Under the pieces are notes generated by a model. The model worked only from the letters and a program-made list of their open reading frames with translations, was not told the origin of the DNA and made no database searches. From contig JAFWMA010000004.1 in NCBI GenBank assembly GCA_017510825.1, positions 40,987-104,986 on the forward strand: a stretch of 64,000 nucleotides of DNA, in the 5' to 3' direction. Below are positions 1 to 18,510 of this stretch, piece by piece. Position 1 is the stretch's first letter; each line of letters begins with the position of its first letter. This DNA comes from Clostridia bacterium. Lineage in GTDB: Bacteria; Bacillota; Clostridia; TANB77; CAG-508. The translations under genes were made by a program, and so were the position numbers.

Positions 1-134
1 TACAATAAAAGTTTTTGTAGAAAAGCCTTGTGCTTTTTCTTTTTTTTTTATATAATGTTGCAGAAGGACATATAGCTAAAAGGAACTTAATCTTTTTGAT
101 ATGTACTGATTAAAAAAATGGAAAGGAAAAATTT

Positions 135-1145: not shown

Positions 1146-1174
1146 AATTTGATATAGAGAAAGGAATTATTAAT

Positions 1175-2365
1175 ATGAAAATTTTAGTTGTAAATTGTGG
1201 AAGCTCTTCATTAAAGTATCAATTAATTGATATGAATGGAGAAAAGCTAATTGCAAAGGGAACTTATGAAAGAATAGGAGAGGAATCGTTCTTAACTCAC
1301 AAAATAAACGGAGAAAGTTATAAACTTAAAAATCCAGTTACTAATCATAAAGACGCATTAGACTTTTCGATAGAGCAATTATTGAATAAAGAGCATCCAG
1401 CAATAAATGACTTAAGTGAAATTGAAGCTGTAGGACATAGAATAGTTCAAGGTGCAGAATATTTTTCAGATTCTGCATTAATTGATGAAGATGTAATTAG
1501 AAAAATAGAAGATTGTGCAAAACTAGCACCTCTACATAATCCTGCAGCAGTTATTGGAATAAGAGCATGTCAAGAACTTTTACCAGGAGTACCAATGGTT
1601 GCAGTATTTGACACAGCATTCCATCAAACCATACCAGAAAATAGATATACATATCCAATTCCATATGAATATTATAAAAAATATAAAGTTAGAAAATACG
1701 GTGCTCATGGAACATCTCACTACTATGTTGCAAATAGAGTTGCAGAATTAATGGGAAAAGATGTGAAAGACTTAAAAATAGTAAATTGTCACCTAGGTCA
1801 AGGAGCAAGTATCTGTGCAATACAAGGAGGAAAGTCAGTAGAAACATCAATGGGGCTTACACCTCTTGGTGGAATTCCAATGTGTGCAAGAGCTGGTGAT
1901 TTAGATCCATCAATTGTAACATTCATTATGAAAAATGAAAACCTAACTCCAGATGAAATGGAAAAAATACTAAACAATGAATCTGGAATGTGGGGAATTT
2001 GCGGGGTTGCAAAGGATGTTAGAGATATAGAATCAGCAGTAAATGATGGAAATAAAATGGCCACTAGAGCACTAGATTATTTTAAATATAGAGTTGCACA
2101 ATTTATAGCTAAATATGCGGTTTCGATGCAGGGAATTGATGTAATAACATTTACTGCAGGAATTGGAGAGAATCAAATAAGAGTCAGAAAAGGAATAATA
2201 GATTATCTAAAATATATGGGTGTAAAAATAGATGATGACAGAAATAATGTTAGATCTGAAGAAAAGCTCATTTCATCAGATGATTCAACAATTTCAGTAT
2301 GGATAGTTCCAACAAATGAAGAATTAGTAATTGCAAGAGATACATTAAGATTATCTTCAAAATAA
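1175..2365 (+). CDS. ackA: acetate kinase
   Basis: 396 aa, N-terminal MKILVVNCGSSSLKYQLIDM, the hallmark acetate/propionate kinase start. RBS GAAAGGA lies upstream. Confidence 0.9.
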   Translation: MKILVVNCGSSSLKYQLIDMNGEKLIAKGTYERIGEESFLTHKINGESYKLKNPVTNHKDALDFSIEQLLNKEHPAINDLSEIEAVGHRIVQGAEYFSDSALIDEDVIRKIEDCAKLAPLHNPAAVIGIRACQELLPGVPMVAVFDTAFHQTIPENRYTYPIPYEYYKKYKVRKYGAHGTSHYYVANRVAELMGKDVKDLKIVNCHLGQGASICAIQGGKSVETSMGLTPLGGIPMCARAGDLDPSIVTFIMKNENLTPDEMEKILNNESGMWGICGVAKDVRDIESAVNDGNKMATRALDYFKYRVAQFIAKYAVSMQGIDVITFTAGIGENQIRVRKGIIDYLKYMGVKIDDDRNNVRSEEKLISSDDSTISVWIVPTNEELVIARDTLRLSSK

Positions 2366-2385
2366 TTTTAAAAGGATCAAATAAA

Positions 2386-3015
2386 ATGAATTGGAAAGAA
2401 ATATATAACAAATGTAACCACAAAAAATACAGTATTATTACAAATATAGAGCAACCAGTAATGATAAAATCAAATATTAGTAATTTTTTAGATAAATATA
2501 AATGGTATTTACTTATAGGAACAATAATTATAATTACTGCACTTCTAATAACCTTAAAGTTTAATATTAAATTAATAATTGGATGCTTAGGAATTGCAGT
2601 ATTTTTACTTATTAGCTTAATTTATTATAATACATTTAAGCTAATAATAAAAGATGATAAACTTAAAATAAATATTATGTTTAAAGAAATAACATTAAAA
2701 AAAGATGATTTACTAACAGTATATATCGAAAGACAAAAAAGTCGAATTTTACTATTTATACCTTTCTATTTTTACTCGATAAACATATTATATAATGATA
2801 AAGGATCAGTTGCTGGATACTCATTATCAACAATAATGTTAAAAAAGAAAGATGTATTAAATTTTTTTAAACACTTCGAATTTAATATTTTAAAAGAACA
2901 GAAGGAAGAAGATAAAAAAGAACAAACATACAATAATGTTATAAGAATCTTCACTGCCTTAGCGTTTATTATTTTAATAATAGCATTTTTAATTTTTGCA
3001 TATTTTAGTCACTAA
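2386..3015 (+). CDS. hypothetical membrane protein
   Basis: 209-aa ORF with several hydrophobic segments and no recognisable motif. Confidence 0.35.
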   Translation: MNWKEIYNKCNHKKYSIITNIEQPVMIKSNISNFLDKYKWYLLIGTIIIITALLITLKFNIKLIIGCLGIAVFLLISLIYYNTFKLIIKDDKLKINIMFKEITLKKDDLLTVYIERQKSRILLFIPFYFYSINILYNDKGSVAGYSLSTIMLKKKDVLNFFKHFEFNILKEQKEEDKKEQTYNNVIRIFTALAFIILIIAFLIFAYFSH

Positions 3016-3114
3016 GTTGTAAAGTTTTTCATACTTTAATCATAAAATAAAATAGGAGTAATAGATTTATAATTAAATTTATTATATATATTAATAACCA
3101 AGAGGTTTTTTTAA

Positions 3115-4284
3115 ATGAATATAAATGTGTTAAAATTTGGAGGAAGTTCAGTTGCAAATAACACAAATCTAAATATTGTTGCAAAAAAAATTATTGATTT
3201 CAAAAACAAAGAAAAAGATATAGTCGTAATTGTTTCAGCACAAGGAAATATGACAGATAATTTAATCAAAGAAGCAAATGAATTAAGTGCTACTCCAGAT
3301 GAAAGAGAATTAGATGCATTAATTAATGTAGGAGAACAAATAACTGCTTCTAAATTATCAATCTTACTAAATAGACTTGGACATAAAGCAATATCTTTAA
3401 ACGGATGGCAAGCAGGAATAAAAACTAATAATAACTTTCAAAAAGCAAAAATAATTGATATAGATACAACAAAAATTATTACAGAATTAGAAAAAAAGAA
3501 AATAGTTATAATCACAGGATTTCAAGGAATTGACAATAAAGGTAATATAACAACACTAGGAAGAGGAGGATCAGATACTTCAGCTGTAGCAATCGCATCA
3601 GTGTTAAACGCTGAACACTGTTATATTTTCTCAGATGTTGACGGTGTATATACAAGTGATCCAAGTAAAGTAAATAATGCCGAAAAATTAAAAAGTATCT
3701 CTTTCAAAGAAATGCAACTTGCATCAAATGAAGGAGCAAAAGTATTACACGATAGATGCGTTGAATTAGCAGAAAAATATAATACAAAAATTGTTGCATC
3801 ATCTACTTTTAATAAACATAAAGGAACATTAATTGAAAGTGGAAACAACAATATAGAAGAAAATAAAATCAAAAGCATAGTTAAAAATGATGATATATTA
3901 TTAGTTAAGATAGTATTAGATAATGAAGAAAAAACATATTCATTTTTAAAAAGTATAGCAAAATCAAAAATTAAAATAGGATACTATAAAATTAATAAAA
4001 ACATAATAAATTTATCAATACTTAATAAAGATAGATTTACTTTAATAAAATTAATAGACAAAACTAATAACAAAATAAGTGTAGCTGAAAGTTCCAAGGT
4101 ATCAATCATTGGAACAGGTATTTCTAATAATTTTGAATTAATTGAAAAAATAATAAATGTATTAAATATTGTAAAAAAAGAAATATTATTTATTGACATT
4201 AGTGCATACAAATTATCAATACAATTCACAAAAAAAATTAATGATGAGTTTTTGCAAGAATTGCACACTAAAATAATTAAATAG
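3115..4284 (+). CDS. aspartate kinase (amino-acid kinase family with C-terminal ACT-like region)
   Basis: N-terminal VLKFGGSSVAN...VVIVSAQGNMTD...GGSDTSAVAIA pattern of aspartokinases, 389 aa. A terminator-like hairpin follows at 4290-4325. Confidence 0.65.
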   Translation: MNINVLKFGGSSVANNTNLNIVAKKIIDFKNKEKDIVVIVSAQGNMTDNLIKEANELSATPDERELDALINVGEQITASKLSILLNRLGHKAISLNGWQAGIKTNNNFQKAKIIDIDTTKIITELEKKKIVIITGFQGIDNKGNITTLGRGGSDTSAVAIASVLNAEHCYIFSDVDGVYTSDPSKVNNAEKLKSISFKEMQLASNEGAKVLHDRCVELAEKYNTKIVASSTFNKHKGTLIESGNNNIEENKIKSIVKNDDILLVKIVLDNEEKTYSFLKSIAKSKIKIGYYKINKNIINLSILNKDRFTLIKLIDKTNNKISVAESSKVSIIGTGISNNFELIEKIINVLNIVKKEILFIDISAYKLSIQFTKKINDEFLQELHTKIIK

Positions 4285-4333
4285 TACTCATAATCTTTTT
4301 TATCCTGAATATAATTTATTGAAAGGATAAATT

Positions 4334-4630
4334 ATGATTAATGAACAATATTCTAATAAACAAATAGAAACAATACAAAATATAATCTTAGAAAATAGAA
4401 GTAAGCTGTCTATTTCAGGTGTTAAAGATGTCTTTAGCTTTGATGATCAAATAGTTATTTTAGAAACCAATTTAGGAATGTTAACAATAAAAGGAGAAAA
4501 TCTAAGAATTAACAAACTGAGTCTAGATACAACTGAAGTAATAATAGAAGGAACTATATCAACAATAAGCTATAGCGAAAAAAACAATAAGAAAGCATCT
4601 GAAAGTATATTAAATAAAATATTTAGATAG
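4334..4630 (+). CDS. yabP: sporulation protein YabP
   Basis: 98 aa. The LSISGVKDVFSFDDQIVILETNLGMLTIKGENLRINKL pattern matches the YabP family, and the gene order yabP-yabQ-divIC is conserved as in Bacillus. Confidence 0.6.
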   Translation: MINEQYSNKQIETIQNIILENRSKLSISGVKDVFSFDDQIVILETNLGMLTIKGENLRINKLSLDTTEVIIEGTISTISYSEKNNKKASESILNKIFR

Positions 4631-4636
4631 GCTCTT

Positions 4637-5044
4637 ATGATTTATTATCAATTTACTTCATTTATAGCTTACACTATATTAGGAATTATATCATGTATTG
4701 TTTTTGATTTATTTCGATCTATAAGAAAAAACATAAAAACACCAAATCACATTACCTATGTAGAAGACTTAATTTTTTGGCTTATTATAAGTTTATTATT
4801 ATTATATGTAATAAAATTTCAAAATAATGGAGAATTCAGAATATATTATATATTTGCTCTATTGCTAGGTACAATATTTTATTACTTAACAATAAGTAAA
4901 TATATATTTACATTATTAGCAAAAACTATAAAATATTTAAAAACTTCCGTTCTAAAAATAACAAAAAGCTTCAAAATAATAAAAAAAGCATTTAATCTAA
5001 TTATAAAAAATGACAAAAATAGTAAAAATAAAAAGGATTTATAA
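4637..5044 (+). CDS. yabQ: spore cortex biosynthesis protein YabQ-like membrane protein
   Basis: 135-aa polytopic small membrane protein immediately after yabP. Confidence 0.5.
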   Translation: MIYYQFTSFIAYTILGIISCIVFDLFRSIRKNIKTPNHITYVEDLIFWLIISLLLLYVIKFQNNGEFRIYYIFALLLGTIFYYLTISKYIFTLLAKTIKYLKTSVLKITKSFKIIKKAFNLIIKNDKNSKNKKDL

Positions 5045-5109
5045 AACTTTTGTAGAATAATAATATTAGAGATTTAAAAGGAGATAAGATATTATATCTT
5101 AACAAAAAA

Positions 5110-5376
5110 ATGAATAAAATAATAAAAAGATTAATATTTTTGGGATTAATAATTTATGCAATATACATTTTTATTGCACAGCAAAAAATGCTAAATTCAT
5201 ATGCAGTTGAAAAAAATGAATATACAAATCAAATAATAAATGCTGAAGAAGAAAAAGCAGAACTAAGTAATTCTTTACAAGGAATTAACTCTACAGATTA
5301 TATAGAAGATGCAGCTAGAAACAAATTAGATATGTACCTACCAAATGAAAGAGTTTATATAGATATAACTAAATAA
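5110..5376 (+). CDS. divIC: septum formation initiator (DivIC/FtsB family)
   Basis: 88 aa, N-terminal TM helix then a coiled coil (NQIINAEEEKAELSNSLQ...), C-terminal ...PNERVYIDI typical of FtsB/DivIC. Confidence 0.6.
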   Translation: MNKIIKRLIFLGLIIYAIYIFIAQQKMLNSYAVEKNEYTNQIINAEEEKAELSNSLQGINSTDYIEDAARNKLDMYLPNERVYIDITK

Positions 5377-5529
5377 TAGTTATATCTTTTTTTATTCTAT
5401 TTTTTTCCAAAATATTGATTTAAATAAAAAAATATGGTATAGTATTATGTATAAAATATTTATTTCTAAAAATCTAAACTATAAAATCCCCATTAAAAAA
5501 AAATTAAATAATAAGAAAGGAAATTAATT

Positions 5530-6861
5530 ATGGATTTTGAAAACTACACACTAGTAGAATTAAGACAAATAGCAAAGGAGAAAGGAATAAAAAATGTTAC
5601 AAAATATAAAAGACAAGAGTTATGTGATTTAATTAATGAGACACTAGCTAATAACTCAAGCAATAAAAATACGCTACCATCAAATATAAAAGAGGAAATA
5701 GAAGAGGAATCCAGAGTAGTAGAAGGCTATACTTTAAGTAGCTCAAATGATACAATAGCAGAAGGTATATTAGAAATATTACCAGATGGATATGGATTTT
5801 TAAGAGGTAAAAATTATCTTTCAACACCTAATGATATATATATATCACCGGTACAAATAAGAAGATTCAGATTAGACAATGGAGATAAAATTAAAGGAGT
5901 AGCAAGGAAACCTCAAGAAGGAGAAAAGTTTCCAGCACTAATATATGTTGGAGAAGTAAATGGGCAACCTCCAGAACAAGCTTATAGAAGAGTTAAATTT
6001 GATGATTTAACACCAATATATCCAAATGAAAAAATAAAATTAGAAACAAATCCAAAAGAATATTCAACTAGAATTATTGATTTACTATGTCCAATAGGAA
6101 AAGGACAAAGAGGAATGATTGTTGCACCGCCTAAAGTTGGAAAAACAACATTAATAAAAAAGATTGCAAATGCAATATCAACTAACAATCCCGAGATAGA
6201 GCTAATAGTATTGTTGATTGATGAGAGGCCGGAAGAAGTTACAGATATGTGTCGTTCAATAAAGGGAGAAGTTATTTATTCAACATTTGATGAACTTCCA
6301 GAACATCATGTTAAAGTTGCAGAAATGGTTTTAGAAAGAGCAAAAAGATTAATTGAACAACAAAAGGATGTAGTAATACTTTTAGATAGTATTACTAGAT
6401 TAGCAAGAGCATATAACCTTACTGTACCAGCTTCAGGAAGAACATTATCAGGAGGCTTAGATCCAGCAGCGTTGCACAAACCAAAGAAATTTTTTGGTGC
6501 AGCAAGAAATATAGAAAATGGAGGAAGTCTTACAATCTTAGCATCTGCTTTAGTAGAAACAGGAAGCAGAATGGATGATGTAATATTTGAAGAGTTTAAA
6601 GGAACTGGAAATATGGAAGTTGTTTTAGATAGAACACTATCAGAAAAAAGAATATTCCCTGCAATAGATATATATAAATCTGGAACAAGAAGAGAAGATT
6701 TACTTCAATCAAAAGAAGAATTAAAAACTGTAAATTCAATAAGAAAGTCTATGCTATCAATGCAACAAAGCGATAAAACAGAAGAACTAATATCACAAAT
6801 CATTACAACAAATACAAATAAAGAATTAATAGAAAAAATAAATAAAATTTTTAAAAAATAG
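5530..6861 (+). CDS. rho: transcription termination factor Rho
   Basis: 443 aa. N-terminal Rho_N ([13 protein letters not shown]), cold-shock-like RNA-binding region, Walker [19 protein letters not shown], and the C-terminal ATPase. Confidence 0.9.
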
Positions 6862-6949
6862 AAAAATATATTTACAAAAAACTACAAAAAATATATAATT
6901 AATATAAATTTGTTAATAATAAATTTATAATTAAATAAAAGGGAAAAAT

Positions 6950-9688
6950 ATGAAAAAAGTATATCTAATCATTATAATAATAACAATAGCTGTAAGCACA
7001 TATTCATGTGCATATGCCAGCACAATTGACAAAATTGAAAAAATTGAATTTTCAGATGCCTACAAACAATATATGAACTTAACAGAAGAAGAGAAAAAAC
7101 AATATTCTGCTATTCCATTACCTTATGATGTTCCAGAATCAACACACATAAGCAAAAATCCATTAAAAATAATGTCAAAAGTTGGGGATAGCTATGAAAC
7201 AAATTTTTCGCTAAAAAGTTCAAACTATTTGCCAAATATGAAAATTTATAATCAAAATCCATCAGCTATATGCTGGGCATTTAGCACACTTTCATCTTTA
7301 GAAACCAATCTTGATTTACAAGAAATTTCATCAGGTAGAAATCCTAAATACTATGATTTTTCAAGAAGTCATATGGATTATGGAACTGTTAGGAACTTTC
7401 TAAACAATGAAAAAAATAAATATGGACTACTAAGAGCTCCTGGAAGTTCAGCAACATGGTATACACCAATTGCATATTTAACAAATGGTTTGGGTGCAAT
7501 TAATGATAGCGACATGAAATTTGAAGATTATAAAAACAAAGAGGATGTATCATCACCTTATCCAATCAATTTATCAGAAATTCAGAACAAACAAGTAAAA
7601 ACAGAAGTATTTGATATTAACTTATATGCATCTTCATTGTCAGATCCAAGCAATAGAGAACAAGCAAAGAGCCTTGTAAAATCAAATATAAAAAATAATG
7701 GATCAATGGCCGTACAAATATTAGGAGGAGATGTTTCGAGTGCATCTATAAGATTTTCAGATTATTACAATAGCGAAACAGCAGCATTATATTCAGATAT
7801 AAATTTTGTAAACCATGCTGTATCTTTAATTGGATGGGATGATAATTATTCTGTTAATAATTTTAAATCTACAAAGAGACCATCGCAGAACGGTGCCTGG
7901 ATTGCAAGAAATTCATATGGAACTTCATATGGTGATAATGGTCTAATATATATATCATATGAAGACTACAATGTATATTCATATATGCTAAATATAACAA
8001 ATGCATTAGCTTACACAACATATGATAATATATATCAATATGATGAACAAGGAAGCATTCTAAATACTATATTTAGGCAAAATGAACAAACACTTTATAT
8101 AGGTAATATATTTGATAAAAAAACTACTAAAAATGAGTATATAACACATGTTGGCATTTTTGCACCCGAACAATATAACTGTAAAGTATATGTTAATCCA
8201 AACGGAAGTAATATGTCAAAAACAGAATTACAAAGAGTAACTTTAAAGCAAGGAGATGGTTCTAGTGAAGAAATACCAGTAGGATATCATACACTAGAAT
8301 TCAATGAACCAGTAAAAATTAATTCAAATGAATATGCAGTTGTAGTCGAAGTTACTAGTAAAAGAGATAACAATGATGTATACTATGCAGCAGAAGCCCA
8401 ATACAATGAAACCGACTCAAGTTCAGTATATTATGAATACAGAGATATAGATATATCAAATAGTAAATGCTTCATTGCATCACAATCAGATTTTAATAAT
8501 AATAATTGGACTGACTTAACAAAAATTAATTCCTTAAAACCTGAAATTCCTAATGCAGACTCAACTATAAAAGCGTTTACAATAAATCAATCAATAGATC
8601 CATCACTAGATAGAATTACAGTAACCAATGAACCGTCAAAAAAAGAATATATTGAAGGAGAAAATTTTGATAAGACAGGAATGGAAATTACAGCATTCTT
8701 TAATGATAATACATCAAAAGTACTACAAGATTCAGAATACAGCATTTCAAACGCTACAAATTTACAAATTAGCCAAACAAATATTACAATTACCTATCAA
8801 GATAAGACAACAAACCAACCAATAACAGTAACCCCAAGGGTAACTCCAACAGTAACACCAACAGTTACTCCTACAGTGACGCCTACTGTAACACCAACGG
8901 TTACTCCTACAGTAACACCAACAGTTACTCCTACAGTGACACCTACTGTAACTCCAACAGTAACACCAACGGTTACTCCTACAGTGACACCTACTGTAAC
9001 TCCAACAGTAACACCAACGGTTACTCCTACAGTGACACCTACTGTAACTCCAACAGTAACACCAACAGTTACTCCTACAGTGACACCTACTGTAACTCCA
9101 ACAGTAACACCAACGGTTACTCCTACAGTAACTCCAACTCCAAAGCCATTAAACCCACAAAATTCAAACTTAAATAACATATCGTTATCTATAAATTCAG
9201 TTGATAGTAATAAAATAAATATAACAATAAATAATTTCAATCAAAACAAAAATAACGAAAAAATGGAGTACTACTATTATATATCAGATTCAAAAAATTC
9301 TGATATAACAAAAGTTGACTTTATAAATATATTAAATCCAAAAACAGTTGGAAACACACTTCAATTTGAAATTAATAAAAACGATATTGCTAATTTTAGT
9401 AAACTAGAATCATCAGACAAGATATATCTATTTTTAAGAGAAGTTGCTAAAATAGGAAGTAATCAGAGTATAGCAACGTCAAAGGCTTTAGAAATGGAAA
9501 TAAGCAATTCATCGTCTATTCCAATTGATGTTGATAGAAAATCAACTATTTACGACGATACAGTTGCTAAGGATCCAATTCCACAAACTGGTATTTCACC
9601 ACTAATAATAGTTATTATAACAATTATTTCTATAACAGGGATTACATTATTTATAAAATACCAGAAAATAAAAAATAATTTAAAATAG
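6950..9688 (+). CDS. cell-wall-anchored papain-family (C1) cysteine peptidase with (TPTV)n linker and sortase signal
   Basis: Signal peptide, then the C1 active-site context NQNPSAICWAFSTLSSLETN. It then carries roughly 26 tandem VTPT repeats and C-terminal IPQTG, a hydrophobic helix and a KYQKIKNNLK tail, which together form a sortase sorting signal. Confidence 0.7.
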   Translation: MKKVYLIIIIITIAVSTYSCAYASTIDKIEKIEFSDAYKQYMNLTEEEKKQYSAIPLPYDVPESTHISKNPLKIMSKVGDSYETNFSLKSSNYLPNMKIYNQNPSAICWAFSTLSSLETNLDLQEISSGRNPKYYDFSRSHMDYGTVRNFLNNEKNKYGLLRAPGSSATWYTPIAYLTNGLGAINDSDMKFEDYKNKEDVSSPYPINLSEIQNKQVKTEVFDINLYASSLSDPSNREQAKSLVKSNIKNNGSMAVQILGGDVSSASIRFSDYYNSETAALYSDINFVNHAVSLIGWDDNYSVNNFKSTKRPSQNGAWIARNSYGTSYGDNGLIYISYEDYNVYSYMLNITNALAYTTYDNIYQYDEQGSILNTIFRQNEQTLYIGNIFDKKTTKNEYITHVGIFAPEQYNCKVYVNPNGSNMSKTELQRVTLKQGDGSSEEIPVGYHTLEFNEPVKINSNEYAVVVEVTSKRDNNDVYYAAEAQYNETDSSSVYYEYRDIDISNSKCFIASQSDFNNNNWTDLTKINSLKPEIPNADSTIKAFTINQSIDPSLDRITVTNEPSKKEYIEGENFDKTGMEITAFFNDNTSKVLQDSEYSISNATNLQISQTNITITYQDKTTNQPITVTPRVTPTVTPTVTPTVTPTVTPTVTPTVTPTVTPTVTPTVTPTVTPTVTPTVTPTVTPTVTPTVTPTVTPTVTPTVTPTVTPTVTPTVTPTVTPTVTPTVTPTPKPLNPQNSNLNNISLSINSVDSNKINITINNFNQNKNNEKMEYYYYISDSKNSDITKVDFINILNPKTVGNTLQFEINKNDIANFSKLESSDKIYLFLREVAKIGSNQSIATSKALEMEISNSSSIPIDVDRKSTIYDDTVAKDPIPQTGISPLIIVIITIISITGITLFIKYQKIKNNLK
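8821..9142 (+). repeat. tandem 12-bp (VTPT-coding) repeat array, roughly 26 units with a 48-bp higher-order periodicity
   Basis: gtaac(a/t)cc(a/t)ac(a/g)gt(t/g)act... is repeated directly. The reverse-strand GVTV ORF 8797..9240 is its mirror artefact. Confidence 0.9.
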
Positions 9689-9821
9689 ATTATAATAATA
9701 AAGATGTGGCACTTGTTATATATATTGCAAGTGCTACATTAACGGACTCTAAAATATCTAAACCAACAAATTGTAATTTTATAAATAATAAGAATAACTA
9801 ATAGTAGAAAGGATAAAAAAA

Positions 9822-12059
9822 ATGGAGTTTAAACAATGGAATGATTTTAAAAAAGGAATATGGAACAAGGAAGTAGATGTGAGAGATTTTATACAAAAAA
9901 ACTATACACCTTATGAAGGCAATGACTCATTTTTATCTAAGGCAAGTGATAGCACAAAAGAATTATGGAATATAGTAACTGAATTATACAAAAAAGAAAG
10001 AGAAAATGGTGGTGTTTTAGATGTTGCAACAGATATTCCATCAAACATTAATTCATTTGAAGCAGGTTATATTAATAAAAAACTTGAAAAAATTGTTGGA
10101 CTTCAAACAGATAAACCACTAAAAAGAGCCATTATGCCAGAAGGAGGTATACGAATAGTCGAAAAATCTTGTGAAGCATATGGTTTTAAGGTATCAGAAA
10201 AAATAAAAAACATCTATCATAATTACAGAAAAACACATAATGATGGAGTGTTTTCTGCATATACACCAGAAATCAGGTCTGCTAGATCAAGTAAGTTATT
10301 AACAGGCTTACCAGATGGATATAGCAGAGGAAGAATAATAGGTGATTACAGAAGAATTGCACTATATGGAGTAGATTATTTAATAGAACAAAAAAAAGAC
10401 GATTATGAAAATGCAAAATCTAGTTGGATGTGTGATGAAATTATTAGAGAAAGAGAAGAAATAACTGAACAAATAAAGGCGTTAGAAGAACTAAAAAAAA
10501 TGGCAGAAAGATATGGTTTTGATATATCACAACCTGCTTCAAATGCAAAAGAAGCAGTTCAATGGTTATACTTTGGATATCTAGGAGCAGTAAAACAACA
10601 AAATGGAGCAGCAATGAGTATTGGAAGAATCTCTACTTTTTTAGACATATATTTTGAAAGAGATTTAAAAAAAGGAAAATTAAATGAATCACAGTGCCAA
10701 GAAATAATGGATCATTTTGTAATGAAACTAAGATTAATAAGGTTTTTAAGAACACCAGAATATGATGAACTATTTAGTGGAGATCCAGTTTGGATTACAG
10801 AAAGTATTGGAGGTATGGGAATAGATGGAAGAACACTAGTTACAAAAAATTCTTTTAGAATTATTCATACACTTGAAACTATGGGAACAGCTCCTGAGCC
10901 GAATTTAACTGTACTATGGTCAACAAATCTTCCAAAAAATTTCAAAAACTATTGTGCTAAAATGTCGATTAAAACAAGTGCAATTCAATACGAAAATGAT
11001 GATCAATTGAGACTATACTTAGATGATGACTATGGAATAGCATGTTGTGTTTCACCAATGAAAATAGGAAAACAAATGCAATTTTTTGGTGCACGTGCAA
11101 ACCTTGTAAAAACACTAACCTATGCGATAAATGGTGGTAGAGACGAAATAACTGGAAAACAAGTAACAAGTAAATTTGAACCTATTACATCAGATAAACC
11201 ACTAGAATTTAATGAAGTATGGCAAAAATATACACAAATGATGGACTATGTTGCTAAAATATATATAGATGCACTTAATATAATTCACTATATGCATGAT
11301 AAATATTCATATGAGAGCTTAGAAATGGCACTACATGATAAAGATATAATTAGAACGATGGCTTGCGGAATTGCAGGGCTATCAGTTGCTGCTGACTCAT
11401 TATCAGCAATAAAATATGCCAAAGTAACTCCAATAAGAGATAATACAGGTTTAGTAATAGACTACAAAATTGAAGGAGACTTTCCTAAGTTTGGAAATGA
11501 TGACGATCGAGTAGATAGTTTAGCTTGCCTTATACAAAAAACATTTATGGAAAAACTAAGTGAACAAATGACCTATAGAAATGCTAAACCAACTTTAAGT
11601 ATACTAACAATAACATCAAATGTTGTATATGGAAAGGCAACTGGGAATACACCAGATGGAAGAAGAGCAGGAGAGCCATTTGGACCAGGAGCAAATCCAC
11701 TACATGGTAGAGATACAAATGGAGCTATATCAGCACTTAATTCACTTGCAAAATTAAAATTTAAATATTCACAAGATGGAATATCATACACATTTGCAAT
11801 TACACCAGAAACACTTGGAAAAGAAAAAAGCACACAAATTAAAAATCTAATAGCTTTACTAGATGGTTATTTTGTTCAAATGAGTCACCATATAAACGTA
11901 AATGTATTTAATAGAGATTTATTAATAGATGCAATGAATCACCCAGAAAAATATCCTCAACTAACAATAAGAGTTTCTGGCTATGCAGTTAACTTTATAA
12001 AATTAACTAAAGAACAACAACTAGATGTAATAAATAGAACAATACATGAAAAGATTTAA
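9822..12059 (+). CDS. pflB: formate C-acetyltransferase (pyruvate formate-lyase)
   Basis: 745 aa with the glycyl-radical motif RVSGYAV near the C-terminus and a typical PFL N-terminus. Confidence 0.9.
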
Positions 12060-12160
12060 AAAAATAAGATTTTAAATATACTATTAAAAAAAACTTTCTT
12101 TTATCCTGGATGCACTAATATAGTAAATAAAAAGTTAATAAATGGAAGAGAGAAATAACA

Positions 12161-12887
12161 ATGTCAAATATAAAAGGTAGAGTTCACTCATTTGAATCAT
12201 TTGGAACACTAGATGGGCCACGGAATAAGATTTGTTGTATTTATGCAGGGGTGCATATTAAAATGTAAATATTGTCAAAATAGAGACACATGGAATAGAC
12301 AAGGTGGAAGAGAATACACAATTGATGAAATAATAAAAAAAATAAAAAGAGAAAAGTCATTTATTGATGCATCACAGGGAGGAGTAACAATATCAGGAGG
12401 AGAACCCTTGCTTCAGGCAAACTTTATACTAGAATTGTTCAAAGAATTAAAAAAACAAAATATAAGTACTGCCATAGATACATCAGGTGCAATTAAAATT
12501 AATAAAACAATAATTGATCTACTAAAATATACAGACCTAGTATTGTTAGACATAAAACATATAGATGAGGGGAAGAGTATTGAATTAACAGGTTTATCAA
12601 ACAAAAACGAACTAGAGTTTGCAAAATATTGTTCAGATAATAAAATCAATTTATGGATAAGACAAGTATTAATTCCAAAATATACAGATAATAAAGAAGA
12701 TCTTGAAAAAACATATAATTTTATAAAAACACTAAAAACTGTAAAAAAAGTTGAAATTTTACCATATCATAATTTAGGAAAATATAAATGGGAAAGATTA
12801 GGATTAAAATATCCATTTGAAGAAGTAAGTACACCAAGCATAGAAGATATAGAAAAAGCAAAAAAAATACTAAATATAAAAGAATAA
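12161..12887 (+). CDS. pflA: pyruvate formate-lyase activating enzyme, interrupted by an apparent 1-nt insertion
   Basis: The frame from ATG 12161 (RBS GGAAGAGAG) gives MSNIKGRVHSFESFGTLDGP and then stops. The next frame, from 12213, gives GIRFVVFMQGCILKCKYCQNRDTW, the radical-SAM CxxxCxxC motif. An extra c after ggg cca (about 12219-12221) breaks the conserved DGPGIRF. Confidence 0.7.
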
Positions 12888-12936
12888 ATATATTTAAATA
12901 ATAATATATAATAGTAAAAACAAAGAAGAGAGTAAG

Positions 12937-12962
12937 AAAGCTTTACTAAAAGCTTTCAATTT
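12937..12962 (+). terminator. hairpin GAAAGCTTT-ACTAAA-AGCTTTC after pflA
   Basis: Perfect inverted repeat directly downstream of the pflA stop codon. Confidence 0.5.
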
Positions 12963-13812
12963 GTTGTATTGAGAGTTGCGTGAAATGTAAGTTTTGCGCA
13001 AAAAGAGATAGGAGAAAAACATGTATATGTAAAAAGCTCCTATCTCGCTATGTTTTAGGCTTTTCAGTACTTTTAGACTAATATTTAAAACAACAACTTA
13101 TATTACTTTATTATTAAAATGTCTTATATTCGATCCTGGAGCTTCATTTATTTAAGCTTATTCCAGGATTTTAATTTTATCTTATATAATTTCATTTCAA
13201 AAAATTTTTATTATTATAATTTTATATCTATTATATGAAAAATTTTTCAAAAATCTCCAAATCCTTTATTTTCAACATTTTGCCGTTTTTTATAGACAAC
13301 AAACTATATGCCCTTTTTATAAAAACGCCTTAAAATCGATTCTCGTGCGTCGTTTTTTTGACCATTTTTCAGCAATTTTCAGAAAGTGTTAATTTACCAA
13401 TATTTATAGCTGATTAATATAAATTTTACTTTAAATCAAATATTTAGATTATAAATCTTAAACATGTAACTTGTTAGATTAAATATAAAAATGTCTTAAA
13501 ATCAATTTTAAAGCGTTTAATTTATAAAATAATATTAGTAGTTTAATAATTAAATCTGATTTGTAAATTTATAAAATTATCCATTATAATATGTTAAAAT
13601 TTCATTCATAACAAATGTTCGGTTTTTAATTTTATTGTTCGTAATTTTAATTTTTTATTTATAAATTTTATTTTTATGATTTTGCTTAAGTAAAATTTTT
13701 TTTGAAATACTTTTTGTAAGGTCTTAAGATTTAGTTTTGAAATTTTATTTATTTTTAAAATCTTCAATTTTTTAAAACTACCTCTCTCTCCTACTTTTAT
13801 ATTTTTACAGAA

Positions 13813-13848
13813 AAAAACTTTTGGATGGTAGGCTCCAAAAGTTTTTTT
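13813..13848. terminator. bidirectional terminator-like hairpin AAAAAACTTTTGGA...TCCAAAAGTTTTTTT
   Basis: An 8-bp stem flanked by an A-run and a T-run, immediately 3' of the reverse-strand 13851..14240 gene. Confidence 0.55.
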
Positions 13849-13850
13849 AT

Positions 13851-14240
13851 TTACAATCTAATTTTAACATTATAACCTGTAAAAATTTCTATTTTCTCTT
13901 TAATTGCCAATTCAGCATCTCTGCATGAATAACTCTCATCAAGACTAAAGTGGGCGTTTGCAACAATAAGAAGTTTTTTTGGTGAATCAGAAACGATTTC
14001 AATTTTATAAATATCATCCTGCGTCATTTGATCTTTCATAGTAGATAAAACCTCTTTTTTAGCATATTCAATCACTTCTTCTTCCGACAGATCTAATCTA
14101 AATGCTGCTTCAATGTCTTCATTTTCGAATAGAAGTTTAAGAACTCTTACTATAATATCATAAGATCTTAATAAACTATTATCTTCTTTTAATTTTGGAC
14201 CTATAACCCGAACTACATCTTCTAAAGTAATAGCTTCCAT
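13851..14240 (-). CDS. small protein, possibly Asp23/Gls24 (alkaline-shock) family
   Basis: ATG at 14240 preceded by AGGAGG. The ORF track extends it to a TTG at 14258. The C-terminal ...AELAIKEKIEIFTGYNVKIRL loosely resembles the Asp23 C-terminus. Confidence 0.35.
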   Translation of the reverse strand: MEAITLEDVVRVIGPKLKEDNSLLRSYDIIVRVLKLLFENEDIEAAFRLDLSEEEVIEYAKKEVLSTMKDQMTQDDIYKIEIVSDSPKKLLIVANAHFSLDESYSCRDAELAIKEKIEIFTGYNVKIRL

Positions 14241-14679
14241 AATATACCTCCTAAGCAATTGCTTAATTGATTTAGTACATGTCCTACCACATTACTAATT
14301 ACTTAATGAATTCTTGTTGATTATATCATTTTTTTGCATATATTGCAATTATTTAGGAGGTACTATTATCAAAGTTTTGCGCAATAAAGAATAGGAGTAA
14401 AATATATGGACGACCTACCCAGGTGTCCTACAACATATTGATATATCAATGCTTTTAGCGCTTTATAGCTTATTTTTTAGTTTTCTAAAACTCCCCCCTC
14501 TCTCCTACTCTTCTTCTTTTGGTAAAATCAGATTTTGTACTTTTTATTACTCCAATTACAAGTATTAAATCTATATTCAAAAAATATTACACTTCAGTGA
14601 TTTAATCAATAATTTATTGCATTTTAAATAATAATAATATATAATAAAATTATCAACTAATATAAAAGGAGTTTAATAT

Positions 14680-15675
14680 ATGATTAATATAGATGACAAC
14701 CCAGAATTTTTAAATACATTTTTAGAATACTCACTTGCTTATAAACACAAATCTCCAAATTCTGTTGATCAATATAATAGTGATTTAATAATGTTTTTAA
14801 GATATATGAAATATCATTTAAAATTAACTAAAGAAAAAGAATTTAGCAAAATAATTATAAAAGATTTTTCAATTTCACAATTGTCTATAATAACTCAAGA
14901 AGATATACATTCTTTTATATCATATTTATCAATAAATAGAAGGTGTGGTCCAGCTACTTGTGCCCGAAAGATTTCAACAATAAGAATTTTCTTCAAATAC
15001 TTAACTATTACAACACATGTATTATCAACAAATCCAGCCCAAAACTTAGAAACTCCAAAACTGAACAAACGACTACCAAAATATCTTACTTTAGAAGATA
15101 GCCAAAAGCTACTTAATGCAACACAAGCAGATGAAGATTCTAAAAATAGTGAAAGAGATTTTGCAATAATAACATTGTTTTTAAATTGTGGTTTACGTCT
15201 TTCAGAACTAGTATCTATAAACATATCTGACATTAAATTTGATGAATGTAAATTAACAGTTATAGGAAAAGGAAATAAAGAAAGAACTATTTATCTTAAT
15301 AAAGCTTGCATAAAAGCAATAAATAATTATTTAAAAATAAGACCAAATAATGCAAAAAAAGATTCTAAAAACTCAGATAAAGCATTATTTTTAAGTGCAT
15401 ATAGACAACGTATAAGTAAAAGAACTGTAGAAAATATAGTAACCAAAAAACTCCAAAAGGCTGGTCTAGATACATCAAAATACTCAACTCATAAATTAAG
15501 ACATACTGCAGCAACTTTAATGTATCAATATGGTCAAGTAGACATACGTGCACTACAAGAATTACTTGGACATGAAAGTATTGCAACTACTGAAATATAT
15601 ACACATGTTGACAATAATCAAGTACGTCTTGCAGTTGAGTCTAACCCATTATCTGATTTTGGAACAAAAAAATAA
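14680..15675 (+). CDS. tyrosine site-specific recombinase (XerD/XerC-like)
   Basis: 331 aa. N-terminal SAM-like domain, then C-terminal ...HKLRHTAATLMYQYGQVDIRALQELLGHESIATTEIYTHV containing the R-H-R-Y catalytic residues. The flanking genes are housekeeping genes, so a chromosomal Xer is more likely than a phage integrase. Confidence 0.75.
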   Translation: MINIDDNPEFLNTFLEYSLAYKHKSPNSVDQYNSDLIMFLRYMKYHLKLTKEKEFSKIIIKDFSISQLSIITQEDIHSFISYLSINRRCGPATCARKISTIRIFFKYLTITTHVLSTNPAQNLETPKLNKRLPKYLTLEDSQKLLNATQADEDSKNSERDFAIITLFLNCGLRLSELVSINISDIKFDECKLTVIGKGNKERTIYLNKACIKAINNYLKIRPNNAKKDSKNSDKALFLSAYRQRISKRTVENIVTKKLQKAGLDTSKYSTHKLRHTAATLMYQYGQVDIRALQELLGHESIATTEIYTHVDNNQVRLAVESNPLSDFGTKK

Positions 15676-15809: not shown

Positions 15810-16388
15810 ATGAGTTTACAAAAAATAAATATAGGCTTTGCTATAACTGGATCTTTTTGTACATTTTCTAAAACAATTATACAAATAAAGAAAATAATTA
15901 AAGAAGGAGCAAATGTTATTCCTATTATGTCATATAATTCATACAATCTTAATACAAAGTTTGGTAAAGCCCAAGATTATATTAAGGAAATTGAAGAAAT
16001 AACAAAAAATAAAATTATTCATTCGATTAAAGAAGCTGAACCTATTGGACCAAAAAAAATAACAGATATAATGATCGTTGCTCCAGCATCAGGAAACACA
16101 ATTGCAAAATTAGCTAATGGAATTAATGATACACCCATAACTATGGCAGTAAAATCACATTTAAGAAATAGCAAACCACTTGTTTTAGCAATTTCAACTA
16201 ATGATGCATTAAGTGGTAGTGCAGAAAATATTGGGAAGCTATTAAACAGAACGAACTACTATTTTGTACCATTTAGGCAAGATAATCCAATCACAAAACC
16301 TCGATCAATAGTTTTCGACCCAAATTATATAATTAAAACAATTAAATATGCAATGAATAATGAACAAATACAACCTATATTACTTTAA
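15810..16388 (+). CDS. flavoprotein of the dipicolinate synthase subunit B / CoaC-like family
   Basis: 192 aa. The family pattern is INIGFAITGSFCTF...VAPASGNTIAKLANGINDTP. No dpaA-like partner was seen. Confidence 0.5.
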   Translation: MSLQKINIGFAITGSFCTFSKTIIQIKKIIKEGANVIPIMSYNSYNLNTKFGKAQDYIKEIEEITKNKIIHSIKEAEPIGPKKITDIMIVAPASGNTIAKLANGINDTPITMAVKSHLRNSKPLVLAISTNDALSGSAENIGKLLNRTNYYFVPFRQDNPITKPRSIVFDPNYIIKTIKYAMNNEQIQPILL

Positions 16389-17400: not shown

Positions 17401-18510
17401 TTACTTTGACATAAATTTCAAGTATGCAAAAATAAATTCATTTAAATCTCCATCCATTACTTTTTGGACATTTCCTACTTCATAATTTGTTCTATGATCT
17501 TTAACCATTGTGTAAGGGCAAAATACATATGAACGTATTTGACTTCCCCATGCAATATCCATTTGTATTCCCTTTAAATCTTCAATTGTTTCTTTATTCT
17601 CTTTTTCTTTTAAATTAATTAATTTAGATTTTAGCATTTTCATAGCGGTATCTTTATTTTGAAATTGGCTCCTTTGAGTTTGACAAGATACTATAATTCC
17701 AGTTGGAATGTGTGTTAGTCTAACAGCAGATGATGTTTTATTAATATGTTGACCACCAGCACCAGAAGCTCTAAAAACATCCATTTTTATATCATCAGGA
17801 TTAATATAAACATCTTCATTATCATCTATTTCTGGTAATACTTCAATAGATGCAAAAGAAGTATGTCTCCTTCCCCCTGCATCAAATGGTGAAATTCTTA
17901 CAAGTCTATGAACTCCATGTTCAGATTTTAAATATCCATAAGCATAATCCCCCATTACAGAAAATGTTACACTTTTAACTCCAGCTTCGTCACCAGCTAG
18001 ATAGTCGAGTTCTTCTAGCTTAAAATCATTCGCTTCAGCCCATCTTACATACATTCTATACAGCATTTCAGCCCAATCCATTGCTTCAGTTCCTCCAGCA
18101 CCAGGATGTATAGTAATAATAGCATTATTTTTATCATATTTATCAGAAAACAAAGTTTGGATTTCAAGTTCCTCTAATTTCTTTGTAATTTTTTTTATAG
18201 AATTCTCAACTTCACTTTTTAAATCATAATCTTCATCATTTTCTTCTTTTAATAATTCTAGCATTTCTCCTACAGCTATTATTTCATTCTCAATCTTCTT
18301 ATATTTAGTTATTTTTTTCTTAATTTCTGCAATTCTACCAGATACTTTAGACGAGGTTTCAGGATTATTCCAAAAACCATATTTTGAAGTTTCTATCTCT
18401 AATTGTTTTAATTCATTTTCTAAATCATTTAGAGAAATAGAATTTTTCAGCTCTTTAATTTTTAGCAATTGACTCTGATTTTCTTTTAATAATCCATCAA
18501 TCTCAATCAT
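17401..18510 (-). CDS. prfB: peptide chain release factor 2
   Basis: 369 aa, with the SPF tripeptide (ISPFDAGGRR) and the GGQ motif (SGAGGQHINKT). The reading frame is continuous, with no programmed +1 frameshift site. Confidence 0.9.
   Translation of the reverse strand: MIEIDGLLKENQSQLLKIKELKNSISLNDLENELKQLEIETSKYGFWNNPETSSKVSGRIAEIKKKITKYKKIENEIIAVGEMLELLKEENDEDYDLKSEVENSIKKITKKLEELEIQTLFSDKYDKNNAIITIHPGAGGTEAMDWAEMLYRMYVRWAEANDFKLEELDYLAGDEAGVKSVTFSVMGDYAYGYLKSEHGVHRLVRISPFDAGGRRHTSFASIEVLPEIDDNEDVYINPDDIKMDVFRASGAGGQHINKTSSAVRLTHIPTGIIVSCQTQRSQFQNKDTAMKMLKSKLINLKEKENKETIEDLKGIQMDIAWGSQIRSYVFCPYTMVKDHRTNYEVGNVQKVMDGDLNEFIFAYLKFMSK

Follow-up and report, generated by a model that had tools for sequence, protein, structure and literature searches.

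The largely non-coding interval between pflA and a Xer-family recombinase gene is probably a recombination site of the replication terminus, that is, a dif-like Xer site with tandem IMEX-like inserts, two units bearing copies of an element, X (Table 1). Throughout, the window denotes the whole 64-kb stretch of DNA that was analysed. An earlier note on this DNA had described two duplicated motifs, A and B, in the order A1 ... B1 [gene] A2 B2, and had read them either as a duplicated junction left by an excised or decayed element or as a pair of sRNAs or riboregulators. The order is correct, and the first of these readings was essentially right: the left arm and centre of the site occur twice, as A1 and A2, on either side of a 1.4-kb insert made up of a gene for a 129-aa protein and a 0.8-kb non-coding element. 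The main context had been missed, namely the terminus-like switch in GC skew and gene strand at this position, and the TTGCGCAA 'palindrome' that the note had pointed out is half of the dif-like site.

Terminus-like position, core site and neighbouring recombinase

Large ORFs lie exclusively on the plus strand from 1 to 12887 and nearly all on the minus strand from 16452 to 64000. GC skew is positive upstream of ~13 kb and negative downstream, with the cumulative skew maximum of the 64-kb window at ~13 kb. This switch is a terminus-like position at which replication forks meet, and the pflA terminator is the end of the plus-strand genes of the left replichore. The same switch was observed in related loci. 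Where both flanks were available (30 loci), the skew turned from plus to minus at the full site in 24 and in the reverse direction in none, and it did so equally in L196 and L197, which had been retrieved without the X motif. The genes flanking the site at the switch differ among these loci; such constancy of position is to be expected of a dif site and not of an ordinary attB.

Table 1. Coordinates of the features discussed in the text, in positions of the window
Feature	Position	Strand	Remarks
pflA gene	12213-12887	plus	
Intrinsic terminator hairpin of pflA	12936-12957	plus	9-bp stem, then T-rich tail
Full dif-like core site (motif A1)	12975-13002	minus	reads TTGCGCAAAA CTTACA TTTCACGCAA; includes TTGCGCAA
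Element X, copy 1 (~0.8 kb, conserved, non-coding)	13003-13800	minus	full-length homologues at 65-88% identity in dozens of contigs
Terminal hairpin of X	13005-13046	minus	GAGATAGGAG / CTCCTATCTC, then TTTTT on the minus strand; terminator-like
U unit 1	13090-13144	minus	degenerate AATCGATTTTAAG-type palindrome plus ATATAAGTTGTTGT
Conserved promoter-like site inside X	13230-13259	minus	TGGAGA-18-TATAAT
U unit 2 (most conserved block)	13296-13352	minus	ACGACGCACGAGAATCGATTTTAAGGCGTTTTTA...CATATAGTTTGTTGTCT on the minus strand
U unit 3	13460-13516	minus	near-palindrome TTAAAATTGATTTTAAG plus CTAACAAGTTACATG
Motif B1, purine-rich start of X	13774-13795	minus	AGTAGGAGAGAGAGGTAGTTTT on the minus strand
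Bidirectional terminator-like hairpin between X and the 129-aa gene	13803-13856		23-nt arms, 87% complementary; kept in L009, L010 and L021
Orphan gene (129 aa), cargo of the inserted cassette	13851-14240	minus	
Promoter-like site of the 129-aa gene	14320-14348	minus	TTGCAA-17-TATAAT, TG upstream; kept before the gene in L021 and L015
Hybrid half-site (motif A2)	14359-14384	minus	reads TTGCGCAAAA CTTTGA TAATAGTACC; left arm and centre retained, right arm substituted
Element X, copy 2 (A2-B2), internally deleted	14365-14520	minus	14365-14480 is the final 115 nt of X; 14487-14520 is the start of B'
Xer-family tyrosine recombinase (331 aa)	14680-15675	plus	sole tyrosine recombinase gene in the window

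A dif site has two inverted arms of ~11 bp around a centre of 6-8 bp and lies at the replication terminus, the shift point of GC skew. The core site is built and placed in this way. Its consensus, TTGCRCAAAA-CTTTGA-TTTTGYGCAA, consists of two 10-bp inverted arms and a 6-bp centre, and this 10-6-10 layout is kept in ~45 loci at the end of X, with perfectly inverted arms in most of them. The arms co-vary (TTGCRCAAAA with TTTTGYGCAA as against TTGCATGAAA with TTTCACGCAA), and the site of an independently retrieved relative reads TTGCATGAAA CTTTGA TTTCACGCAA. By our own count E. coli dif is identical to the core site at 18 of 28 positions, the two having TGCGCA-AA of the left arm in common. A literature search with the sequences of the site and the U units found no papers. 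The window holds one full site and one hybrid. Its full site mixes a type-1 left arm with a type-2 right arm, and has the centre CTTACA where CTTTGA is found elsewhere. Owing to this centre and to arms that match at just 8 of 10 positions, against 9-10 of 10 in most loci, the copy in the window may be impaired.

The neighbouring recombinase scored 237 bits on the XerC model (cut-off 335) and 217 bits on the XerD model (cut-off 330), both under the equivalog cut-offs, and 164 bits on the XerS model (cut-off 267). Its relatives fall into more than 120 clusters at at least 79% identity, under the NCBI name 'tyrosine recombinase XerC', and it is a widely conserved core gene beside prfA and no prophage gene. 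In at least 10 loci an orthologue is found at a distance of 1-3 kb from X, sometimes on the opposite strand. A search through an 82% orthologue of the recombinase, made without the X motif, again gave the order prfA-xer ... X-site-rho at a skew flip; no core site was found within 8 kb of the recombinase in L200-L202. The adjacent Xer-family recombinase probably serves the core site.

Elements joined at the site in other loci

The elements that are, as their junctions read, inserted at the central CTTTGA in other loci comprise filamentous and tailed prophages, an ICE-like element and small cassettes. Among 46 aligned loci, 11 have the L-c-TAAT... junction seen in A2. The junction TAATAGTA[C/A/G]CC is repeated in L015, L075, L153 and L158, close variants of this A2-type junction (TAATGGTACC, TAATAATAGC) occur in L021, L097 and L099, and junctions in which diverse arms are followed by CTTTGA-TTTTGTGCAATG were found in 19 viral contigs. 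A Zot-bearing prophage is present in L014 and missing from the otherwise identical L010; direct repeats of ~63 nt, starting at the centre, lie on its flanks, and by the pattern of the two loci the crossover falls at the distal end of this repeat, not in CTTTGA. No gene with a Phage_integrase domain was observed among the called genes of this prophage. In L183 a Zot-like ORF lies between two sites that are 9 kb apart, and in L075 X stands alone between 22-nt direct repeats (left arm and centre) with no gene in the unit. Fic, CAAX protease, ParA/T4CP and RadC, which are among the genes found beside X or in the arrays, are characteristic of mobile DNA. As in IMEX elements, direct dif-like flanks with one hybrid are found in the window and in L021, L075, L148, L156, L161 and L014, and the 1.4-kb unit of the window carries the 129-aa gene only, with no recombinase gene of its own.

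Tailed prophages at the site (L030, L032; integrase cluster v1) bring their own tyrosine integrase, encoded beside the junction, and U units also lie at the attP position of many temperate phages. Together with the scores of the recombinase below the Xer equivalog cut-offs, these observations would fit a site that is a mere attB for the integrases of mobile elements, with X as a pile-up of scars, a terminus position that results from the accumulation of mobile DNA, and the true dif elsewhere. Filamentous prophages without an integrase use the site all the same, and a B. subtilis-type dif, the canonical one of Firmicutes, has no match at up to 3 mismatches in the 64-kb terminus window. The site also follows the skew switch despite its differing flanking genes, its near-perfect inverted arms co-vary, and the recombinase next to it is a highly conserved core gene; we consider the attB explanation unlikely.

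Element X and the 129-aa gene

In gene orientation, X consists of B', an AT-rich stretch, three U units, a hairpin and the core site. Its full-length homologues come from gut and rumen contigs, and the spacing from U2 to the site is ~350 nt in 68 instances of X. X was seen to end at the core site in every homologue. Conversely, X preceded the core site throughout, an observation that is biased because most loci were retrieved through a motif inside X, L196 and L197 being the only independent ones. The U motif was found in 35 viral contigs and in at least 120 metagenome contigs, the repeated unit of X includes CTTAAAATCGATTTTAAG, and B'-like G-rich starts occur in L009, L010, L021, L162 and L197. 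The promoter-like sequence of X lies, in L015, upstream of a 48-aa ORF and a gene for a PEP-utilising enzyme. The U units were also considered as sigma-70, sigma-E or sigma-K promoters, as Ter sites and as iterons of a replication origin, all of which fit poorly in spacing and sequence.

The motifs described from the letters alone are real, some of the coordinates having been off by up to 16 nt. Motif A, placed at 12973 and 14373 with a length of about 90 nt, does occur twice, but its exact 13-mer AAGTTTTGCGCAA lies at 12989 and 14372 and the copies are alike over ~34 nt (82% identity); an indel separates them, so that the 27-nt pattern proposed for the motif went unmatched even when 3 mismatches were allowed. 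The perfect 10-bp inverted repeat was confirmed (GAGATAGGAG at 13005-13014, CTCCTATCTC at 13037-13046), with a spacer of 22 nt, not 21. Two copies of motif B are likewise present; they had been placed at 13772 and 14475, and the core CTCTCTCCTACT is at 13784 and 14498, with 2 matches against 0.15 expected (two were reached in 1 of 100 shuffles). The CTTAAAATCRATT repeat at 13495 was correctly placed and its partner is at 13329, not 13323. On its own this 13-mer is not above chance (2 found, 2.0 expected); it is part of a 33-55-nt unit with three copies, at 13112, 13318 and 13484. The hairpin claimed at 13130-13170 exists (ATCCTGGA...TCCAGGAT), and the absence of any ORF of 60 aa or more in 12960-13850 is true, the longest being 53 and 42 aa.

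Could X instead be one or more genes for non-coding RNA, transcribed towards the site, with motifs A and B as pairing ends or regulatory parts, and targeted by mobile elements in the way that tRNA and tmRNA genes are? Nucleotide identity is higher in X (77-87%) than in the recombinase gene next to it (~70%), X contains a conserved promoter-like site, and B' (GTAGGAG) is complementary to CTCCTAY at the X end. The hairpin at this end is retained in homologues with different stem sequences, its G-U pairs work on the minus strand only, a T-run follows, and the mean folding-energy z of the region is -1.98 (39 sequences). The sole hairpin that re-forms with different stems nevertheless looks like a terminator, and the remainder of X argues against an RNA: the best-conserved blocks are DNA palindromes (AAAATCGATTTT, TTTTGCGCAAAA), not covarying helices, and the AT-rich half is poorly conserved. 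An Rfam scan, as the earlier note had proposed, gave no match over the whole window at gathering score and nothing beyond chance level over 12800-14800 at E <=10. RNAalifold gave 0 pairs for the best-conserved last 400 nt (46 sequences) and, on both strands, for the last 80 nt, where MAFFT register shifts may mask the terminal hairpin, whose conservation was judged by eye and by z-scores. Neither an RNA gene, which we regard as quite improbable, nor the suggested pair of sRNAs or riboregulators is borne out by these searches. A leader peptide after the RBS-like ATAGGAG of motif A, which lies within the terminal hairpin, was also rejected because the mini-ORFs (MYM and MDDLPRCPTTY, each to a stop codon) are unconserved and on the strand opposite to the conserved hairpin.

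That X is decayed coding sequence or neutral filler, its repeats a functionless local tandem duplication, is hardly credible: base skews over 13050-13850 do resemble those of minus-strand genes, and at 15-25% GC many promoter-like matches arise by chance, but the conservation data, as aligned, already contradict it, since dozens of contigs whose neighbouring genes differ can be aligned over the whole of X, hardly any variation is seen across loci in blocks of 25-30 nt, and the two X copies of the window are not mutual closest relatives. A pseudogene was dismissed, no ORF exceeding 53 aa or having a recognisable product. An integron was dismissed as well; the recombinase scored 111 bits on the integron-integrase model (cut-off 265), and the junctions are double-stranded 10-6-10 sites with a 0.8-kb arm, not attC sites of ~60-140 nt.

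The 129-aa gene sits between the two X copies. The end of copy 2 is 94.8% identical to the X end in L175 and 88.5% to that in L162, and its B' shares 91% identity with the beginning of the L162 X; between the window and L175 the recombinase genes are only 69.8% identical. By these comparisons A2-B2 is an internally deleted, older X of another sub-lineage than the full X. The 129-aa protein has 15 relatives only, all metagenomic, and an AlphaFold model with a pLDDT of 90.9. No PDB or viral fold matched it at E <=0.001, and no Pfam or NCBIfam family did. When loci were searched for by protein, 2 genome loci were the only ones obtained, and viral and JGI contigs gave none. Nothing was found for the protein as a replication terminator (RTP-like) or as a Xer activator like XafT of TLC-phi. 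In L012, X is oriented opposite to the gene. A DNA inversion was considered for this orientation and set aside, X and the gene as separate modules being the simpler explanation.

Under the dif-like reading that we favour, a circular unit of the 129-aa gene, X and a site with only the left arm matching would recombine with the resident site at the central region. The outcome would be a hybrid site on one side and a regenerated full site on the other, as with IMEX elements at dif. The conserved neighbouring Xer homologue would catalyse the insertion and X would supply something needed in cis, its three palindrome units being putative binding sites for an accessory protein. The hairpin and T-run ahead of the core site may halt transcription entering the site. 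Unequal homologous exchange is another way in which tandem X copies could arise. A bolder and decidedly tentative proposal is that X is a new gene-less or one-gene integrative element: a 0.65-0.9-kb module with a half-matching dif-like site and three putative protein-binding units shared with phage attP, inserted by the host Xer at the terminus and serving as a common 'mobility arm' for cargo cassettes in gut and rumen Clostridia. Such an arm would have a role similar to that of attC, with X ten times longer and working at dif.

Comparison with known Xer systems and implications

Two single-recombinase Xer modules are the closest models for the site: XerS/difSL of streptococci and lactococci, which, like the present site, came to light when sequences around the skew shift were compared (PMC1914069), and XerH/difH of Helicobacter (PMC5357621, PMC5241119). 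They share with the present locus a non-canonical dif-like site, the inverted arms, a 6-8-bp centre, the GC-skew shift and a Xer gene nearby. In contrast to them, the models that give the present recombinase its highest scores are XerC and XerD, not XerS; its gene is 1-3 kb off, sometimes on the other strand, and not immediately adjacent; and the arms are almost perfectly symmetrical, with an activity that is predicted. A conserved 0.8-kb non-coding element precedes the site here, and those systems are not known to have a counterpart.

The inserts resemble IMEX elements, among them CTX-phi, TLC-phi and VGJ-phi of Vibrio, the gonococcal island and LME-1 of Legionella (PMC9226527; bioRxiv 10.1101/2021.09.12.459815). 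Common to both are elements, including integrase-less filamentous phages, at a dif-like site, with one full and one hybrid flank, tandem arrays, and attachment sites that match one arm only, as in TLC-phi. Here, unlike in IMEX, small units combine at most one cargo gene with X as a long, conserved non-coding arm, the users of the site include tailed phages that encode their own integrases, and Xer dependence is deduced. Small cargo between Xer-type boundary sites in varied contexts is described for the pdif modules of Acinetobacter plasmids (PMC12907356). The present units are alike in being small cargo modules between Xer-type sites in varied contexts. Boundary sites of pdif modules are inverted (XerC/D versus XerD/C) and plasmid-borne, whereas here the sites are directly repeated, lie at the terminus of the chromosome, and come with an X in every module. 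Plasmid Xer sites (cer, psi) and phage lambda attP have ~180-240 bp of accessory non-coding DNA on one side of the core. Both they and X place beside the core a non-coding stretch with several repeats that look like protein-binding sites; X differs in its length of ~800 bp and in its three units, 165-250 nt apart.

If the dif-like reading is true, the site that resolves chromosome dimers, together with a likely recombinase, would be identified for a large group of uncultured gut and rumen Clostridia in which a Bacillus-type dif was not found. The site would be a frequent target for insertion by filamentous and tailed phages, by conjugative elements and by tiny cassettes, and would have a conserved 0.8-kb non-coding companion that is not known from described Xer systems. 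X might act as an accessory region governing which way recombination proceeds; alternatively, it could itself be a minimal mobile element. The sequence of the site could mark the terminus in metagenome-assembled genomes and reveal dif-integrated elements.

The conserved element X and its two copies

With a GC content of about 27%, the window is rich in AT, and exact protein matches place it in an uncultured 'Clostridia bacterium' MAG from rumen and gut samples. The motifs described in an earlier note were all found here, with small coordinate errors. Motif A occurs twice as claimed (12989 and 14372), over a similarity of about 34 nt rather than about 90 nt; motif B likewise has two copies (13784 and 14498), and the arms of the 10-bp inverted repeat lie at 13005-13014 and 13037-13046. 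A unit of 33-55 nt is present three times (13112, 13318 and 13484).

Features of the recombinase locus, the conserved non-coding element X and the core-site classes
Feature	Position in window or occurrence	Strand	Description
pflB	9822-12059	+	gene
pflA	12213-12887	+	gene; terminator after it at 12936-12957
Gene-free stretch	12960-13850
Window full site	12975-13002	-	TTGCGCAAAA CTTACA TTTCACGCAA
X1	13003-13800	-	copy of X
Bidirectional hairpin	13803-13856
Orphan gene	13851-14240	-	129 aa
Further non-coding DNA	between 129-aa gene and recombinase gene
Window class II hybrid	14359-14384	-	TTGCGCAAAA CTTTGA TAATAGTACC
X2	14365-14520	-	A2-B2
Recombinase	14680-15675	+	Xer-family tyrosine recombinase
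X part 1 (B')		-	purine-rich start
X part 2		-	AT-rich stretch, weakly conserved
X part 3		-	three U units, each a AAAATCGATTTT-type palindrome, then ATATAGTTTGTTGTC about 30 nt on
X part 4		-	hairpin
X part 5		-	TTTTGCGCAAAA (motif A, opposite-strand reading)
Class I site			full: left arm, centre, right arm
Class II site	11/46 aligned loci		left arm and centre, then unrelated DNA, mostly beginning TAAT
Class III site	19 viral contigs		varied left arms, then CTTTGA-TTTTGTGCAATG

In comparison contigs L009/L014 and L010 the 129-aa gene, together with roughly 1 kb on its 3' side that holds no genes, aligns to window 14307->12983 with 70-80% identity; the encoded relative is 81% identical and the adjoining genes are unlike those of the window. 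In L021 the non-coding element lies on either side of the 129-aa gene. From a multi-locus alignment we describe this element, X, on the window minus strand, the orientation of the 129-aa gene. A search with the U-unit pattern AATCGATTTTAAGRCRTTTT gave matches in 35 contigs of viral origin and in at least 120 from metagenomes, and BLAST with the window found full-length X homologues (65-88% identity) in dozens of these loci. The spacing from U2 to motif A is constant at about 350 nt in 68 instances.

A2-B2 is a copy of X with an internal deletion, comprising 14365-14480 and a B' start at 14487-14520. Window 14365-14480 shares 94.8% identity with the final 115 nt of the X in contig L175. X1 matches the L175 X at only 76.8%, and the recombinase genes of the window and L175 at 69.8%. 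The earlier note had remarked that the motif order looks like a duplicated junction. The two X copies are evidently no local duplication, and successive insertions fit better than a tandem duplication, because X2 is far closer to the L175 X than X1 is and the hairpin stems of X1 and X2 are unrelated.

The 129-aa protein has 15 relatives only, all metagenomic, and no match in Pfam, NCBIfam, PDB or viral structures. Its AlphaFold model (pLDDT 90.9) has a helical N-terminal half, an alpha/beta C-terminal half and a conserved SYSCRD motif. In L015 the gene is found without X, adjoining a histidine phosphatase gene.

A dif-like core site at a terminus-like position

At almost all loci X terminates in TTGCRCAAAA-CTTTGA-TTTTGYGCAA(TG), that is, 10-bp arms in perfect or near-perfect inverted repeat around a 6-bp centre. 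Judged from its sequence, motif A is half of this putative recombinase core site. E. coli dif (GGTGCGCATAA TGTATA TTATGTTAAAT) shares 18 of 28 positions with it by our own count.

All large ORFs up to 12887 are on the plus strand and almost all in 16452-64000 on the minus strand. GC skew passes from positive to negative, left to right, with a cumulative maximum at about 13 kb. Since Firmicutes leading strands are G-rich and gene-rich, two forks should converge there. Among 30 loci that extend 1 kb or more to both sides of the site, skew was positive upstream and negative downstream of the full site in 24 and the reverse in none; class II hybrids account for two of the other six. The genes around the site are mostly convergent on it and differ between loci, with rho, divIC, yabQ and yabP downstream in many.

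The window recombinase, the sole tyrosine recombinase within the 64 kb, had its best scores against XerC (237 bits) and XerD (217 bits), both below the equivalog cut-offs. More than 120 clusters reach at least 79% identity, and its NCBI name is XerC; it behaves as a core gene and not as a prophage integrase. Orthologues lie a few kb from X in at least ten loci, and more distant paralogues form tandem pairs adjoining X. As an independent test, contigs were retrieved by an 82% recombinase orthologue, with no X motif used. The order in L196/L197 is prfA, xer, DUF308, a MatE gene, a 1.2-kb gap and the core site, followed on the opposite strand by rho, divIC, yabQ and yabP; the gap holds a B'-like start, U3, U2 and an X-like body, and the skew flips inside it. 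Their core site (TTGCATGAAA CTTTGA TTTCACGCAA) is changed jointly in both arms, as expected where a dimer binds.

In the window, dpaB (dipicolinate synthase subunit B; 15810-16388) and prfA (17401-18510) flank the recombinase; prfA-xer adjacency is kept in relatives L196-L199, and gene order near the recombinase is rearranged in L200-L202.

Mobile elements at the core site

Arrays of X with a class II site followed by X with a class I site were found in the window, L021, L075, L148, L156, L161, L131 and L098, and the class II sequence TAATAGTA[C/A/G]CC or a close variant (TAATGGTACC, TAATAATAGC) recurs before different cargo. The genes within or next to the arrays are of the usual accessory kind (Fic/DOC, CAAX protease, ParA with a T4SS coupling protein, RadC). 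L075 carries gene-less X alone (about 650 nt) between 22-nt direct repeats of left arm and centre, with a protein-coding gene on the outer side instead of another X. L014 matches L010 except for an extra segment of about 5.6 kb, which carries a Zot-like gene and lies between direct repeats (about 63 nt) starting at CTTTGA; L183 has a Zot-like ORF between two sites 9 kb apart, and prophage contigs of 28-43 kb terminate in class III junctions. In these junctions mobile elements are joined at the core-site centre. The window full site combines a type-1 left arm with a type-2 right arm, as expected if X had brought along a left arm of its own and undergone recombination, at the centre, with a resident type-2 chromosomal site.

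The L014 segment (L014:1950-7500, compared with L010:1620-1790) is an inovirus-like prophage with a Zot-like ATPase, two 40-aa coat-like ORFs and DUF2726, placed between the core site and ftsH and missing from the otherwise identical L010; it may represent a filamentous phage of uncultured Clostridia using the dif-like site. Some strains of one species (L198/L199:9800-16500, compared with L196/L197) have about 6.7 kb of inserted DNA separating DUF308 from the MatE-family gene. This insertion carries UPF0236, AAA_33, HAD hydrolases and an HD-domain protein, and the terminus site is a few kb away. An 18-nt inverted repeat, 89% complementary, lies at window 14245-14262 and 14345-14362; within it are the 129-aa gene's RBS (CTTAGGAGGTA) and, on the opposite strand, a further AGGAGG without a start codon downstream, and the second copy of the repeat overlaps the foreign arm TAATAGTACCTCC of the hybrid site.

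Among known systems, the nearest are two Xer modules with a single recombinase, XerS/difSL and XerH/difH, which came to light through the same kind of comparison (PMC1914069). Also close are pdif modules and the IMEX elements found at dif. The core site has the architecture and position of dif, and, as in IMEX, full and hybrid sites flank elements with no recombinase of their own. We infer that the inserts depend on Xer, and regard the dif/IMEX interpretation as fairly secure. An integron reading failed its test. A search for the core-site and U-unit sequences in the papers of one literature collection gave no match.

Possible roles of X

The suggestion that the motifs are sRNAs or riboregulators gained no support from Rfam or RNAalifold: Rfam gave no match in the whole window at gathering score and, in 12800-14800 at E up to 10, nothing beyond chance level. 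RNAalifold gave no consensus structure for a large structured RNA either. The hairpin before the core site re-forms with varied stems (GGACCAT/ATGGTTC, GGCAT/ATGCC, GACTAT/ATAGTC; GAGATAGGAG/CTCCTATCTC in the window), has G-U pairs workable on the minus strand only, is followed by a T-run, and lies in a region more stable than shuffled sequence (mean z -1.98). We read it as a putative terminator, which would stop transcription from a conserved promoter-like site in X (13259-13230) ahead of the core site.

In phage contigs the U units are placed after the integrase/repressor genes on one side and the lysis-gene end on the other, as in many temperate-phage contigs among viral loci L023-L057 (for example L029, L036, L043 and L046). 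The attP of temperate Firmicutes phages occupies this position. The U motif in temperate-phage contigs is often about 40 nt from TGTCGAA direct repeats, and may be an attP accessory or core motif that they share. The U units are candidate binding sites for an accessory protein, in which case X would serve the core site as a long arm or as an accessory region. The proposed role is comparable to that of cer/psi accessory sequences and attP arms, although X is much longer.

The purine-rich X start carries G-rich runs (GAGAGAGGGG, GAGAGGGAGTAGGGGGAG; window 13774-13795 and 14488-14520, L197:11861-11895) on the leading strand, directed at the core site, and these resemble the SpoIIIE/FtsK guiding motifs (GAGAAGGG, GGGNAGGG). 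A piece of X in L015:3380-3640 (B', the second half of U2 and the internal promoter) is immediately 5' of a PqqD-like 48-aa ORF and a PEP-utilising enzyme gene, so a portion of X can presumably serve as a portable promoter region. L012, a 2.8-kb rumen contig, has a promoter and 5'-leader of about 130 nt at 1-130 and 1138-1270, before two different small-gene operons, and an X fragment in opposite orientation. What X may do, and whether it moves, is of more interest than the dif/IMEX part of this locus.
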